A stretch of DNA of 64,000 bases from an uncultured bacterium (GCA_937139365.1 CAKZPT010000062.1:5422-69421), one strand, 5' to 3'; numbered from the stretch's first letter, positions 3,159 through 9,404 are shown. A program made the numbers and translations. Notes: generated from the letters alone by a model not told the origin.

Positions 3159-3235
3159 CCCGGGCTTGCGAGCGTTCCACCAGCCGCCGCCCGTGGGCCG
3201 GATGACGACTTCGCCGCTGATTTGGACTTCGATCT

Positions 3236-3345
3236 CTTGACAACGTTCAGAGACAGTCTAACGCTTTTTTGCAAAAAGCTCCAGATATATTTTATAACTA
3301 CCTCTATATCAATGCCTTATAAAATAACTTCTTCTTGCCTTTCTC
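3236..3345. promoter_or_regulatory. AT-rich intergenic tract (likely promoter region of the moxR operon; possible island boundary)
   Basis: A sequence such as tatattttataactacctctatatcaatgccttataaaataacttcttc stands out in a roughly 70% GC background. It lies immediately 5' of moxR on the minus strand. Confidence 0.35.
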
Positions 3346-3441
3346 GCATTACTCCTTCACTGTTCGTCGAAAAAGTGGGCTCGCCCTCCTGCGCGAAGAA
3401 GTCGGCACCTTAACCCTATTCACGGCGCGGTTCGACACCCA

Positions 3442-4238
3442 TCAGGTGCCGCACGAAAAAGTCCGCCCGCCGCCGCGGCCGTACTCGCTCTCGCCCGCGC
3501 CGTGGCCTTCGCTAGGAAACACGATGAGCTCGAAGTCCTCATCGGCGTGGATCGGCGCGTCGACCACCTGCATCGTCGACGCCGGATCCACGTTGCGATC
3601 ATCCATCGCGCCGACCGTGAGCAGGAGTGCTCTGCGAAGGCGGTGGGCGTGGGTCACGTTGGACCGCTCGGCGTAGTGCGGCCCGACCGGCCAGGCCATC
3701 CACTGCTCGTTCGACCAGATCTTGTCCATCCGGTTGTCATGGCAGCCACAATCGCGGCCGCCTTGTAGAAATCGCCGTGCCACAGCAGCGCGGCCAGCGC
3801 GCTCTGCCCGCCGGCGGAGCCCCCGTAGATGCCCACGCGTTCAAGGTCCATCCACGGTCGGCCGGCGGGCGACGCCCGCAGCCATGCGATCCGGTCGGGC
3901 AGTCCCGCATCCGCGAGGTTCTTCCAGCACACGTCGCGAAAGGCCTTGGAGCGGTGCGAGGTGCCCATGCCGTCGATCCGCACCACCACGAAGCCCAGTT
4001 CCGCGAGTTCGCGGTCGTGCGAATGGACGGCCCACTCCTTTGGCACGAACGCGCCATAGGGACTGGCATAGATGTGTTCGACCACGGGGTAACGGCGGGT
4101 GGAGTCAAAGTTTGTGGGCACGATCAGGATGCCATGGATGTCCGTGGTTCCGTCGCGCCCCTTGGCGACGAACCGCTCGGGCGGGCGCCATCCGGTCGTC
4201 AGCAGCGCGGCCGTGTCGGCACGTTCGAGAACGCACAC
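3442..4238 (-). pseudogene. S9-family serine peptidase (DPP-IV/prolyl-oligopeptidase-like) catalytic domain: N-terminally truncated and frameshifted
   Basis: Two minus-strand ORFs in different frames (3654..4238 and 3442..3783) together give ...[31 protein letters not shown] / [26 protein letters not shown]...[35 protein letters not shown]. That is the Ser-Asp-His region of an S9 peptidase. The frame breaks near 3780. The roughly 400-aa beta-propeller N-terminus is absent. Confidence 0.7.
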
Positions 4239-4262
4239 CAGGGCCCCGTCCTTCCCCTGTTT

Positions 4263-4288
4263 GGGGTCACGTCTCCAGATTCAAATAT
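4263..4288. repeat. 26-bp repeat copy A (inverted relative to copies B and C): GGGGTCACGTCTCCAGATTCAAATAT
   Basis: Its reverse complement ATATTTGAATCTGGAGACGTGACCCC matches copy B at 22 of 26 positions. Confidence 0.6.
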
Positions 4289-4811
4289 CTCAGAACCTCT
4301 CGCAACGCCGAGCGGGCTTCGAGGCGCGGAAGCCAGCGGTGTCGAAAGTGGCGCACCGCCTCGCTCACCGCGGAGTAGTCCATCCCGCCGACCGCATCTC
4401 CGAGTGCGCGGAGGGTCAGGCCGCAATGACGGCGCCCCGCCCATAGCGCGAGGTCCCGCCCTCAATCTCCGTACCGGTCGCGACCCCCCCAGGGCTCCCC
4501 CTTGACTCGCTCCACCCCGCACGGACCACGTCCGGCCAGCTCGCCTCTGCGCGCAGCGATCGCCGCCCCGCGGTTTCCCGCCCGATATGCATGCCCCCTC
4601 GCAGGGCGTCCGCAAACGCCTCGCCCCCCAGCGCCGCGCCCCAGCGAAGCCGTGTCCAGACCGGCTCCGGCGTCCCCTGCCTCAGCCGGTCTTCCGGTAA
4701 ATGCGCTGGCGGCTATGACCGCGCGCCGTGAGGTGATACCGCCCGCCGGCCACGTTCACGCGTAAGGGTCGTGCCACGTCCACCCTTTCTCACACAGCGC
4801 CCCGACGGTCA

Positions 4812-4837
4812 ATGTTTGATTCCGGAGACGTGACCCC
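4812..4837. repeat. 26-bp repeat copy B: ATGTTTGATTCCGGAGACGTGACCCC (followed by tandem CCCCAATCAC x2)
   Basis: Direct copy of repeat C and inverted copy of repeat A. The shared core is GGAGACGTGACCC. Confidence 0.6.
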
Positions 4838-5140
4838 AATCACCCCCAATCACTTCATGGCCGTAAAGACCTTCAGCGAGAGGCGAGGTGGGAGGAGGTC
4901 GTGAAGGCGGTTGAGCGTGTAAAAGGCGAGCGTTGGGAGCAGTTTGCGGATCGGTAGGGCGATTGGGGCTGGGACTTGGTCCTGTGGATTGCACGCGGGC
5001 CCGGGGGGATGACATTGAGTGAACTCAGAGAGAGGGCCGGTGGTTTGGATTACTCGGCCGTCAGCGAGTCTCTGCGCCGATTCGATCGAAAGATGATTCG
5101 TCATCGGCAGAGCCGCTCCGCCGTGAAGAATACCCTGCAA

Positions 5141-7826: not shown

Positions 7827-7943
7827 ATCGCGGGAGAGTACGGTCGTTGACGCCCAATTGGAAGTTCGGCGGACCGTCGCCGGCCAATGTTTTACTGCAC
7901 CGCAATATGAACGGCAATTCTGGTCCGCGACGTCGAGGCCTCC

Positions 7944-8261
7944 GTGGTGCCGGTCGACACCAAGGTTACGCTCATGAAAGGCGAAGCCGCTTACATCACG
8001 CAATCGCCGGGCGGCAGCTACACCGTCATCGTCAACGGCATCATGTTTCGCATTGCGGAACAGGACGCCAACGCGCCGGGCCTGGAGGTCGCGCCCAAGC
8101 CCGTTTCTGCGGCGTCCAGTGGCCCGGTGACACAGGAGCAATTGGACAAGCAGGTCTGGGACTCGCTCAAAACCTGTGACGACCCGGAGATCCCTGTGAA
8201 CATCGTGGACCTCGGGTTGATTTACGATTGTCATCTTACGCTCCTTGGCGAAAACTCCTGA
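7944..8261 (+). pseudogene. Truncated DUF59 (MIP18/SufT-like Fe-S assembly) domain fragment with an unrelated N-terminal segment
   Basis: ...VTQEQLDKQVWDSLKTCDDPEIPVNIVDLGLIYDCHL matches the first third of a DUF59 domain and then stops. No continuation in other frames. The segment is lower in GC. Confidence 0.4.
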
Positions 8262-8437
8262 TAAGAAATCGCTTTTCAGGTCGCGCGGGCCCCCTGCCCG
8301 GGTGAGACCGTCCAGAATCGGCGTTTTCATGGCGGGGGATTTACCAGAGCACCGGATGGAGGCCAAGACCGAAAATCGGTGGGCGAGCGGACAGGATCCA
8401 GGCGCGATCGCGAAACGGACCGATCCCGCCGCGGGGC

Positions 8438-8815
8438 TCAGCCGTTCGCGGACGCCACGATTTGCTCGACATCGTAGTCGGGGAACGGGTCGTTGGGCCA
8501 GGGCTCGGTGACCCGTGCTGCAGGCTCGGACGGAGCCCTCGCCGAACTCACGCGCACGCCCAGCTCCCAGAGGCCGAGGTGGCGGAGGATGTGCTCAATC
8601 ACGGTGCGGTCGTCGATGAGCGCGACGATCTTCATCTCTCGCGAGCACCACGAGCACAGCAGCGAATCGGCTTCCCAGACTTTCTTGATGAGTTCGCGCC
8701 ATTTCGCGAAGGTATACGGCGCGGTTTGTGCCAGGAGACGTCGAGGACCTGGACGGCCTGCACCTCCGCGGCACGGGCCTCTTCGGCGGCGCGCTTGTCG
8801 CGTTGACCACGCATT
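8438..8815 (-). pseudogene. Transposase C-terminal relic (zinc-ribbon tail; tentatively IS91/Y2-transposase-like). No N-terminal catalytic region and no ATG
   Basis: Manual extension of ORF 8438..8635 upstream to the stop at 8816 gives ...TAPYTFAKWRELIKKVWEADSLLCSWCSREMKIVALIDDRTVIEHILRHLGLWE... I recall the pattern [CxxC...M(K/R)I(I/V)A.I.D..VI..IL.HLGLW] as a transposase C-terminal tail. Only about 125 codons of open frame remain. The family is uncertain. Confidence 0.4.
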
Positions 8816-8908
8816 TTATATTCTAATCTGCTCAGGTAGCTGCTTCAAAGCGGGCGGTTACCTGAGAGAGGTTGGCGGGTGGCACGGATCTGGCGCGTGG
8901 GGCAAGGA

Positions 8909-9145
8909 TCACGAGGTGTTGGCCGTCGGCACAAAGGGGTTGCCTCTGGAGGGCAGAGATAAGGAATTCGGTTGTCCCTTCACAGTCCGCCCGACGAGAC
9001 AGCCGTCCTCGATCCGGAATTCCGGTTTGCCGCCCCGAAGGATCCATCCGTTCGTCGAAGCCCCCTCGAACAGCGGCGGAAGATCTCCGGCGCCAGACAC
9101 CCCCGCACCGACCGCCGCCAGGGCCATCCACACGTGTAGTTTCAT
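8909..9145 (-). pseudogene. N-terminal fragment (signal peptide plus about 55 aa) of a DUF1080 (3-keto-disaccharide hydrolase-like) protein
   Basis: MKLHVWMALAAVGAGVSGAGDLPPLFEGASTNGWILRGGKPEFRIEDGCLVGRTV matches the start of DUF1080 domains (compare the intact paralog at 47575..48965). It stops after 79 aa. Confidence 0.5.
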
Positions 9146-9328
9146 GGTGCCATCCTTTCGTTCCGAACTCTGAAGGCGCTGGGCAGGACATGGCAAGGCG
9201 TTTCGAGGTGACCGGGCGGGGTGGCGCCACGTCGTCGCGCCGCCCTCCGCGCCCCTCCGCAGCCCAACCGGGGAAATTCTCCCTGACCGGCGGGCCACAG
9301 CCGGCAGACGAGACCGGAGGAGATGCCC

Positions 9329-9404
9329 TGGTGGCGAGGGACGGAATCGAACCGCCGACACAAGGATTTTCAGTCCTCTGCTCTACCAACTGAGCTACCC
9401 CGCC
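9329..9404 (-). tRNA. tRNA-Phe (anticodon GAA)
   Basis: The reverse complement reads GGCGGGGTAGCTCAGTTGGTAGAGCAGAGGACTGAAAATCCTTGTGTCGGCGGTTCGATTCCGTCCCTCGCCACCA. Cloverleaf: acceptor GGCGGGG/CCTCGCC, D-arm GCTC..GAGC, anticodon loop CTGAAAA, T-arm GGCGG TTCGATT CCGTC. The CCA end is encoded. Confidence 0.9.

Follow-up and report, generated by a model that had tools for sequence, protein, structure and literature searches.

The mobile elements described most closely resembling those treated here are the TIRtrons, elements that code for TIRYT transposases and are bordered on both sides by inverted repeats of the consensus GGGGWSAS (Di Nocera et al. 2013, PMC3733652). Repeats that overlap the 5′ or 3′ end of TIRYT genes have been recorded, and many of the terminal inverted repeat (TIR) elements are clustered (PMC3733652). 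Within the TnpA_REP-like Y1 HUH proteins, the TIRYT proteins correspond to subclass 2.1, whose members have a Bac_DnaA_C/helix-turn-helix (HTH) domain at the C-terminus (Quentin et al. 2018, PMC6006769). The locus considered here lies in a 64,000-nucleotide stretch of DNA from an uncultured bacterium (GCA_937139365.1, CAKZPT010000062.1:5422-69421), referred to below as the window. It occupies positions 3442-9328, between the moxR/bat operon and a gene for tRNA-Phe, and will be called the tract. An initial annotation had presented it as an old genomic island targeted to that tRNA gene. The genes for tRNA-Phe are well-known island sites elsewhere, e.g., pheV and pheU of Escherichia coli.

The tract proper contains one intact gene and six gene relics, namely the C-terminus of an S9 peptidase, an N-terminal fragment of sufT, the C-terminus of an IS91-family transposase, the N-terminus of a DUF1080 protein and two TIRYT remnants (Table 1). 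With the exception of the enzyme gene, all of the genes are truncated. Every component belongs to a known kind, and the tract is real but ordinary. The explanation favoured here, and considered moderately probable, is that the tract represents a mosaic zone of accessory and decaying genes at a synteny breakpoint, which would have arisen through insertions of HUH transposons, the import of at least one gene and subsequent deletions. All features listed in the initial annotation were recovered by six-frame Pfam searches, family scans and homology searches, and its description of an accessory, decaying region with relics of mobile elements is supported by those relics and by the truncations. The further claim of an island targeted to the tRNA gene is not supported, since neither an attachment (att) repeat nor an integrase relic was found in the searches described below, and several independent events are indicated.

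Table 1. Features of the region between moxR and tRNA-Phe; positions are counted from the first nucleotide of the window.
Feature	Position	Strand	Remarks
Native upstream intergenic region of moxR, with AT-rich patch at 3236-3345	3160-3441	minus	Outside the presumed foreign tract
S9B (DPP-IV-type) serine peptidase pseudogene	3442-4256	minus	C-terminal catalytic domain only, frameshifted
Repeat R1, right-end TIR of TIRtron copy A	4258-4288	minus	Overlaps last codons and stop of the pseudogene (LNLET*)
TIRYT pseudogene, copy A (Y1 HUH transposase, DnaA_C-like HTH)	4270-4777	minus	tblastn with L131 protein
Repeat R2, left-end TIR of copy A	4812-4842	plus	Inverted relative to R1; directly 5′ of copy B
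TIRYT pseudogene, copy B	4859-5158	plus	C-terminal ~100 amino acids
Repeat R3, right-end TIR of copy B	5144-5165	plus	Overlaps last codons and stop (LNMET*)
Secreted GH120-like beta-helix protein with inserted CBM6	5499-7826	minus	775 amino acids; sole intact gene of the tract
sufT (iron-sulphur assembly, DUF59) pseudogene fragment	7911-8261	plus	TIGR03406 positions 11-108 of 174, E 6e-29
IS91/ISCR-family (HUH Y2, rolling-circle) transposase relic	8441-8716	minus	C-terminal ~90 amino acids left
DUF1080 (3-keto-disaccharide hydrolase) fragment	8912-9145	minus	Signal peptide and first ~45 domain residues
tRNA-Phe(GAA)	9329-9404	minus	ARAGORN; Rfam 70.5 bits; 3′ end faces the tract

The fraction of guanine and cytosine (GC) in the tract is 0.632 vs. 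0.697 and 0.701 in the flanks, with inner segments ranging from 0.58 to 0.69. In a windowed profile of GC and codon usage the deviation is formally significant: 3-kb windows within the tract reach z-scores of -4.4 for GC and +5.9 for tetranucleotide distance, beyond 105 of 105 background windows, and the codon adaptation index (CAI) of the enzyme gene falls below that of the core genes. No other part of the window deviates as strongly in composition, and the anomaly is centred on the enzyme gene. Local drops in GC that had been noted at 4844-5160 and 7830-8300 were confirmed at 0.584 and 0.601, respectively. On its right-hand side the compositional boundary, judged from the GC of successive segments, is the tRNA-Phe gene, which is separated from the first relic by 183 bp. 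Elsewhere in the window, positions 46500-51000 form the second most deviant region, with a GC of 0.646-0.66 and a tetranucleotide z-score of up to 3.3. This region holds two adjacent DUF1080 open reading frames (ORFs) in different frames of the minus strand (48528-49001 and 47578-48495), followed by a gene for a xylose-isomerase-like TIM-barrel protein. Together the two ORFs (47578-49001) resemble double-DUF1080 proteins of ~410 amino acids, and they may be a single frameshifted gene.

The initial annotation had reported a triplet of 26-bp repeats resembling a miniature inverted-repeat transposable element (MITE). The three repeats do exist, with none expected by chance, and they are the only TIR copies within the 64 kb, but they are not a MITE family. 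The repeats are the ends of two dead TIRtrons rather than an independent repeat family, although the term “MITE-like” came close, given the non-autonomous state of copy A described below. R1 and R2 are 31 nt long and 87% complementary, and they contain GGGGTCAC, which fits the consensus GGGGWSAS; the TIR copies carry GGAGACGTGACCCC. Translation of the region revealed the remnants of two homologous ORFs, absent from the initial annotation, that run in opposite directions and both end in LN(L/M)ET-stop inside a repeat. By eye, R2 and the stretch leading to the start codon resemble the region upstream of an intact TIRYT gene at a locus of an unrelated metagenome (L131, JGI 3300043543).

Both copies were mapped by tblastn against the window; the 342-amino acid reference was the product of the L131 gene after extension to the true start. 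Copy A retains residues 1-27 and 199-342, with a frameshift near 4516. The deletion of residues 28-198 covers the HUH/tyrosine core including HYHLL, and copy B, of which residues 243-342 are left, interrupted by an in-frame TAG at 4955-4957, also lacks that span. An intact HUH motif and a catalytic tyrosine are thus absent from both. With both of its repeats and an internal deletion, copy A is a non-autonomous derivative. Its homologues include P0121 (82% identical) and P0122 (58% identical), the latter carrying PF01797, and its own direct match to Bac_DnaA_C is weak (E 0.013). The closest protein to copy B is P0123, at 63% identity. The proteins of the two copies share only 47-49% identity, so that the copies represent separate lineages and not a local duplication, yet their 22-nt ends are nearly identical.

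A profile search for TIRYT proteins returned 77 relatives, of which the full-length ones (269-301 amino acids as called) carry PF01797. Several homologues carry the DnaA_C-type HTH domain PF08299, and most relatives are located on contigs of ~1 kb, as is typical of multicopy elements. The L131 gene is 58% identical to the remnants in the window and encodes 342 amino acids after extension. The motif (TTGAATC)TGGAGACGTGACCCCAAT is present in at least five inverted copies upstream of this gene and at least seven direct copies downstream. Within L131:2600-2900 and 3890-4150, arrays of GGAGACGTGACCCCAAT are interleaved with partial duplications of the first ~35 and last ~30 nt of the gene, a pattern that looks like repeated abortive end-copying. 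The ~25-nt end motif TTGAATCTGGAGACGTGACCCCAAT, which overlaps the conserved C-terminal codons LNLET-stop, is nearly unchanged between organisms with transposases of only ~58% identity. It is a tentative suggestion, possible rather than probable, that the remnants belong to a TIRtron lineage still active in PVC (Planctomycetes-Verrucomicrobia-Chlamydiae) bacteria. If true, such a lineage would provide both a substrate and a footprint for TIRYT end-copying, which is still uncharacterised, and would explain why new copies come to land beside old ones, copy B abutting the left end of copy A. The well-preserved L131 TIRtron with its arrays of end motifs is the main wider lead from this work and could help in the study of TIRYT action.

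The remaining relics are of several families. The N-truncated, frameshifted S9 peptidase of the initial annotation was confirmed, with ~440 amino acids lost. Six-frame Pfam analysis shows its catalytic domain split over two frames of the minus strand, 3654-4256 and 3442-3783, with Peptidase_S9 positions 10-99 in one frame and 95-195 in another. The frameshift lies near 3742-3783 in all four of the assemblies compared below, and it is regarded as real because the NCBI, ENA and JGI assemblies all call two genes here, of 194 and 85 amino acids. Once joined, the relic aligns to residues ~448-685 of 706 in DPP-IV-type (dipeptidyl peptidase IV) peptidases (2d5l), the missing N-terminal portion being the beta-propeller; what remains of an S9B enzyme is the catalytic domain alone, split by the frameshift. 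The motif GGSAGG is visible in the relic, and we take this to fit the GxSxGG serine-nucleophile motif of the S9 family. The S9 homology ends at 4256, 2 bp from the start of R1 at 4258. The possibility that this relic is what remains of an orthologue of the moxR-upstream hydrolase of relatives was also considered and was rejected (E 0.5).

Three further fragments, first recorded as a transposase C-terminus, a DUF59 fragment and a DUF1080 fragment, were confirmed as relics of IS91/ISCR, sufT and PF06439 genes, respectively. The sufT fragment is cut at both ends: the N-terminal ~115 amino acids, about two-thirds of SufT, are kept without the start codon, the C-terminal ~66 profile positions with the core are gone, and the Pfam match to FeS_assembly_P is limited to positions 2-30 of 73. 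Similarity of the transposase relic is confined to the last ~45-50 amino acids of IS91/ISCR transposases. A tblastn search against plasmids gave 45 records at 43-49% identity, with E-values down to 3e-7, the matches being annotated as IS91 family or ISPps1 transposases; the NCBIfam model ISCR_clade_Ia is matched at positions 445-488 of 509 (E 0.0013). No Y2_Tnp or other transposase domain was detected by Pfam upstream of the relic in any frame. The DUF1080 fragment is weak in Pfam (E 0.033), and an exhaustive phmmer search retrieved 219 relatives for it, the best at E 5e-12. In the relatives checked, the alignment covers the first ~70 residues (~10-80), and all five of the relatives scanned with Pfam (244-416 amino acids) carry a strong PF06439 match. 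Its C-terminus and the N-terminus of the IS91 relic are both missing, with a gap of ~100 bp between the two. No family could be assigned to the spacers at 5166-5498, 8262-8440 and 8816-8911, an Rfam scan of 2900-9900 returned the tRNA only, and a scan for promoters and terminators yielded nothing informative.

The intact secreted beta-helix/CBM6 enzyme reported earlier was confirmed as full length in comparison with its homologues. Pfam matches comprise Glyco_hydro_120_ins (E 2e-29), CBM_6 (E 4e-26) and Beta_helix (E 2e-7), as well as DUF1565. More than 7800 homologues were found (772-782 amino acids, coverage 97-100%), the best of them 70-76% identical. Those with named hosts are mostly from Verrucomicrobiota, and the proteins are labelled as “carbohydrate-binding protein”, “alpha-L-arabinofuranosidase” or hypothetical. 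The protein is probably a carbohydrate-active, sugar-degrading enzyme, as predicted from these domains and homologues. It begins with the signal-peptide-like MKLCIHRLSLGGLLVAHATLSAA at the ATG at 7826; a 955-amino acid ORF at 5499-8366 was rejected as an over-extension of this gene, the signal-peptide ATG being the true start. Its GC at third codon positions (GC3) is 0.796 and its CAI 0.617, both below all 26 of the 26 core genes, for which the minima are 0.823 and 0.641. The gene has a GC of 0.619, and the loci of its two nearest homologues (74-76% identical) have a GC of ~0.62, with unrelated neighbouring genes. These figures point to a probable import from a donor of ~62% GC. Selection appears to have kept the gene, since it is the sole one still intact.

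Comparison with relatives bears on the site itself. Relatives anchored on the M20 peptidase, the gene beyond tRNA-Phe, were taken from among the matches listed, from which the window's own contig is absent and closer relatives may be missing. These are 56-65% identical in genomes, with one at 75% in metagenomes, and among the matches listed none has a tRNA-Phe gene near the M20 gene. Four distinct relatives were anchored on MoxR at 80-82% identity (L132; L133 with its near-duplicate L134; the L135-L137 group). No tRNA was found near moxR in any of them, and the upstream genes are all different from those of the window. In L132 (GCA_026417735.1), a fab cluster (fabF 83%) and an adjacent small protein match the window at 13.7-15.1 kb, and conservation extends to the bat operon. 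Between the two blocks, the filler consists of a GT4 glycosyltransferase and a hydrolase, ~5 kb vs. ~10 kb in the window. Upstream of moxR, the other relatives carry either GT4 together with GH106 and a hydrolase, or mfd together with a serpin. Because the filler between conserved blocks differs from one relative to the next, the region upstream of moxR is seen as a recurrent synteny breakpoint on gene order. These relatives are too distant for defining the boundaries of an insertion. In the window itself, RbsD/FucU, a CitMHS transporter, a GDSL lipase, the M20 peptidase and tRNA-Phe lie between the fab cluster and the tract; in a comparison of 9405-15100 with L132:3685-9785, the genes at 9827-13400, which are typical in composition, are also non-syntenic.

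A sharp dip in GC at 3236-3345 had been counted with the signs of foreign DNA. The dip is present, at a GC of 0.336, but it is not foreign, as the same patch is found upstream of moxR in all relatives examined. A 110-nt patch with a GC of 0.36-0.38 is located within 50-240 nt upstream of moxR in L132-L136, whatever the neighbouring gene (e.g., L132:9845-9954, L133:9846-9955 and L135:5978-6087, in genomes of 68-70% GC); overall, the GC of the patches spans 0.32-0.38. Short motifs such as CGAACGTT and ATTGAT are common to the patches. The comparison indicates a conserved, native feature of the moxR upstream region, which is probably the promoter or a regulatory region of the bat operon. Since the patch is taken as native, the tract proper starts at ~3442.

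The stability of the tract was followed in four assemblies that represent at least three samples: the NCBI metagenome-assembled genome (MAG) GCA_036845605.1, ENA ERZ27245459, JGI 3300010288 and JGI 3300025104. Contig DAIUDP010000004.1 of the MAG matches the window at 100% identity, and the contigs of the other three do so at 99.86-99.96%. The tract is present in all four with scattered single-nucleotide polymorphisms (SNPs) only, and the junctions on both sides agree at 99.86-100% identity. No allele without the tract was seen among the four assemblies, and the tract is fixed in the sampled population. SNPs between the assemblies are not enriched in the tract, with counts too small for judging relaxed constraint. 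A cluster of SNPs and one insertion/deletion (indel) between assemblies lies at 9601-9612 and 9686-9751, in the spacer between tRNA-Phe and the M20 gene. The host has a GC of ~70% and is an uncultured bacterium of the PVC group, most likely of the Kiritimatiellae, because the best-matching named homologues of its MoxR and M20 proteins come from MAGs of Kiritimatiellae, Lentisphaerae and Verrucomicrobia.

Under the favoured explanation, the tract would have been built up piecemeal by several independent events at a plastic site. At least three separate HUH insertions would be involved, one of an IS91-family element and two of different TIRYT/TIRtron elements. There would also have been at least one horizontal import, that of the GH120-like/CBM6 gene from a PVC donor of lower GC (~62%). 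The second TIRtron may have landed beside the left end of the first, which would fit the clustering of ends in L131. The S9, sufT and DUF1080 fragments could either have been carried in or have been resident. Deletions would have trimmed adjoining pieces against each other, with the loss of ends from all genes except the enzyme gene, which was presumably kept by selection for polysaccharide use. As all of the transposases are dead, the tract is now immobile. We infer this order of events, as we do the foreign origin of the enzyme gene.

Several points weigh against this reconstruction. The best homologues of the enzyme are only 70-76% identical and most are without a taxon label, and the lowering of GC3 in its gene is modest (z -2.5). 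AT-biased mutation during decay, and not a foreign origin, could account in part for the lower GC of the pseudogenes. The relatives compared are more distant than the genus and give only an indirect view of insertion vs. ancestral presence of the pieces. Finally, the right-hand compositional boundary falls at the tRNA gene, as it does in a classical tRNA-integrated island.

One alternative is that of the initial annotation: a single old island, integrated by a site-specific recombinase at the 3′ end of tRNA-Phe, from which the integrase, attR and most of the cargo have since been deleted. Such an island would explain why the tract abuts the 3′ end of the tRNA gene with a compositional shift that stops within ~200 bp, and it agrees with the atypical composition, the relics of mobility genes, the truncated genes and the general familiarity of tRNA-Phe as an island site in other bacteria. 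It is nonetheless considered unlikely. The second copy of the tRNA-Phe 3′ end that an att repeat would supply was not found: the 25-mer at the 3′ end occurs only once in the window, also when three mismatches are allowed, and there are no shared words of ≥11 nt between 9290-9440 (the tRNA ± 40 nt) and 1-9300. A six-frame Pfam search of 3100-9500 (E ≤ 0.1) revealed no integrase or recombinase domain or relic. The mobile relics are all HUH transposons, which need no tRNA target; to our knowledge, such transposons (IS91, IS200/IS605-type) use short sequence targets and not tRNA genes, and their presence therefore says nothing about the tRNA. Several independent events, and not one island, are also suggested by the divergence of the two TIRYT lineages (47-49% identity) and by the heterogeneity of the segments, whose GC varies over 0.58-0.69. 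The four assemblies, as noted, hold no allele without the tract. Adjacency is the one thing that ties the tract to the tRNA gene, and the claim of a tRNA-targeted island is unproven; the tRNA gene would appear to have played no role in the formation of the tract. As the case illustrates, a position beside a tRNA gene together with low GC does not establish integrase-mediated insertion.

It could also be proposed that nothing was imported, and that transposons struck ancestral S9, sufT, DUF1080 and GH120 genes, of which those inactivated then drifted AT-ward. Each of the relic families is commonly found in PVC bacteria, a DUF1080 pair is also present at 47.6-49.0 kb in another part of the window with lower GC, and several of the relics have a GC3 below that of the intact gene. 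What makes this history improbable as well is that an intact gene under presumed selection, the GH120 gene, lies at the centre of the anomaly, while its nearest homologues are found in loci of ~62% GC with unrelated neighbours. In addition, where relatives conserve the fab and bat blocks, all of these genes are missing from the interval between the two, and the S9 relic shows no homology to their moxR-upstream hydrolase (E 0.5).

A chimera of assembly or binning, in which a low-GC tract from another organism was joined in error, is very improbable, for although the source is a MAG and one sample has two contigs with ends close to the tRNA (9488 and 9835), the same junctions on both sides recur in four independent assemblies at 99.86-100% identity, and those contigs overlap by 348 bp and end at the SNP/indel cluster at 9601-9751. 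The two contigs belong to sample 3300010288. Their ends had separately been considered as a sign of a strain lacking the tract, and this was rejected on the same 348-bp overlap and the position of the breaks at that cluster.

The piecemeal origin at a plastic site is thus retained as the preferred explanation. It matters little beyond annotation, where ~6 kb can be described as pseudogenes and transposon relics around one predicted functional carbohydrate-active gene. For the same purpose, the repeat triplet is to be labelled as TIRtron ends, and the AT-rich patch as a conserved moxR upstream region, not foreign DNA.

In comparison with known systems, the tract shares with tRNA islands its location 3′ of tRNA-Phe, its atypical composition, its relics of mobility and a carbohydrate-active cargo gene. 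It differs from them in having no integrase and no direct repeat of the tRNA end, and in that its relics are transposons and not genes of an integrative element. No presence/absence polymorphism was seen for it either among the four assemblies, all of which carry the tract. The likeness to IS91/ISCR elements consists in the C-terminal ~45-50 amino acids of the relic, which are those of ISPps1-type/ISCR transposases, whereas the N-terminal part of ~300-400 residues, with the catalytic HUH/Y2 domain, has been lost. Neither an oriIS nor a terIS end was identified at this relic, for which no search aimed at such ends was made.

The resemblance to TIRtrons is closer. Homologues of the two copies in the window are Y1_Tnp (PF01797) proteins of ~300-340 amino acids with a DnaA_C-like HTH tail; inverted repeats with GGGGTCAC flank copy A, the right one overlapping the 3′ end of the gene, and the repeats of L131 are clustered, as published for many TIR elements. 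The difference is that both copies in the window are dead and that the 64 kb contain no dispersed TIR family. The category which fits the tract best is that of genomic-plasticity regions, the pseudogene “junkyards” found at synteny breakpoints. Like these, the tract lies between blocks that are conserved in a relative, with variable filler, and is dense in truncated genes and insertion sequence relics, and it shows no material difference from them.

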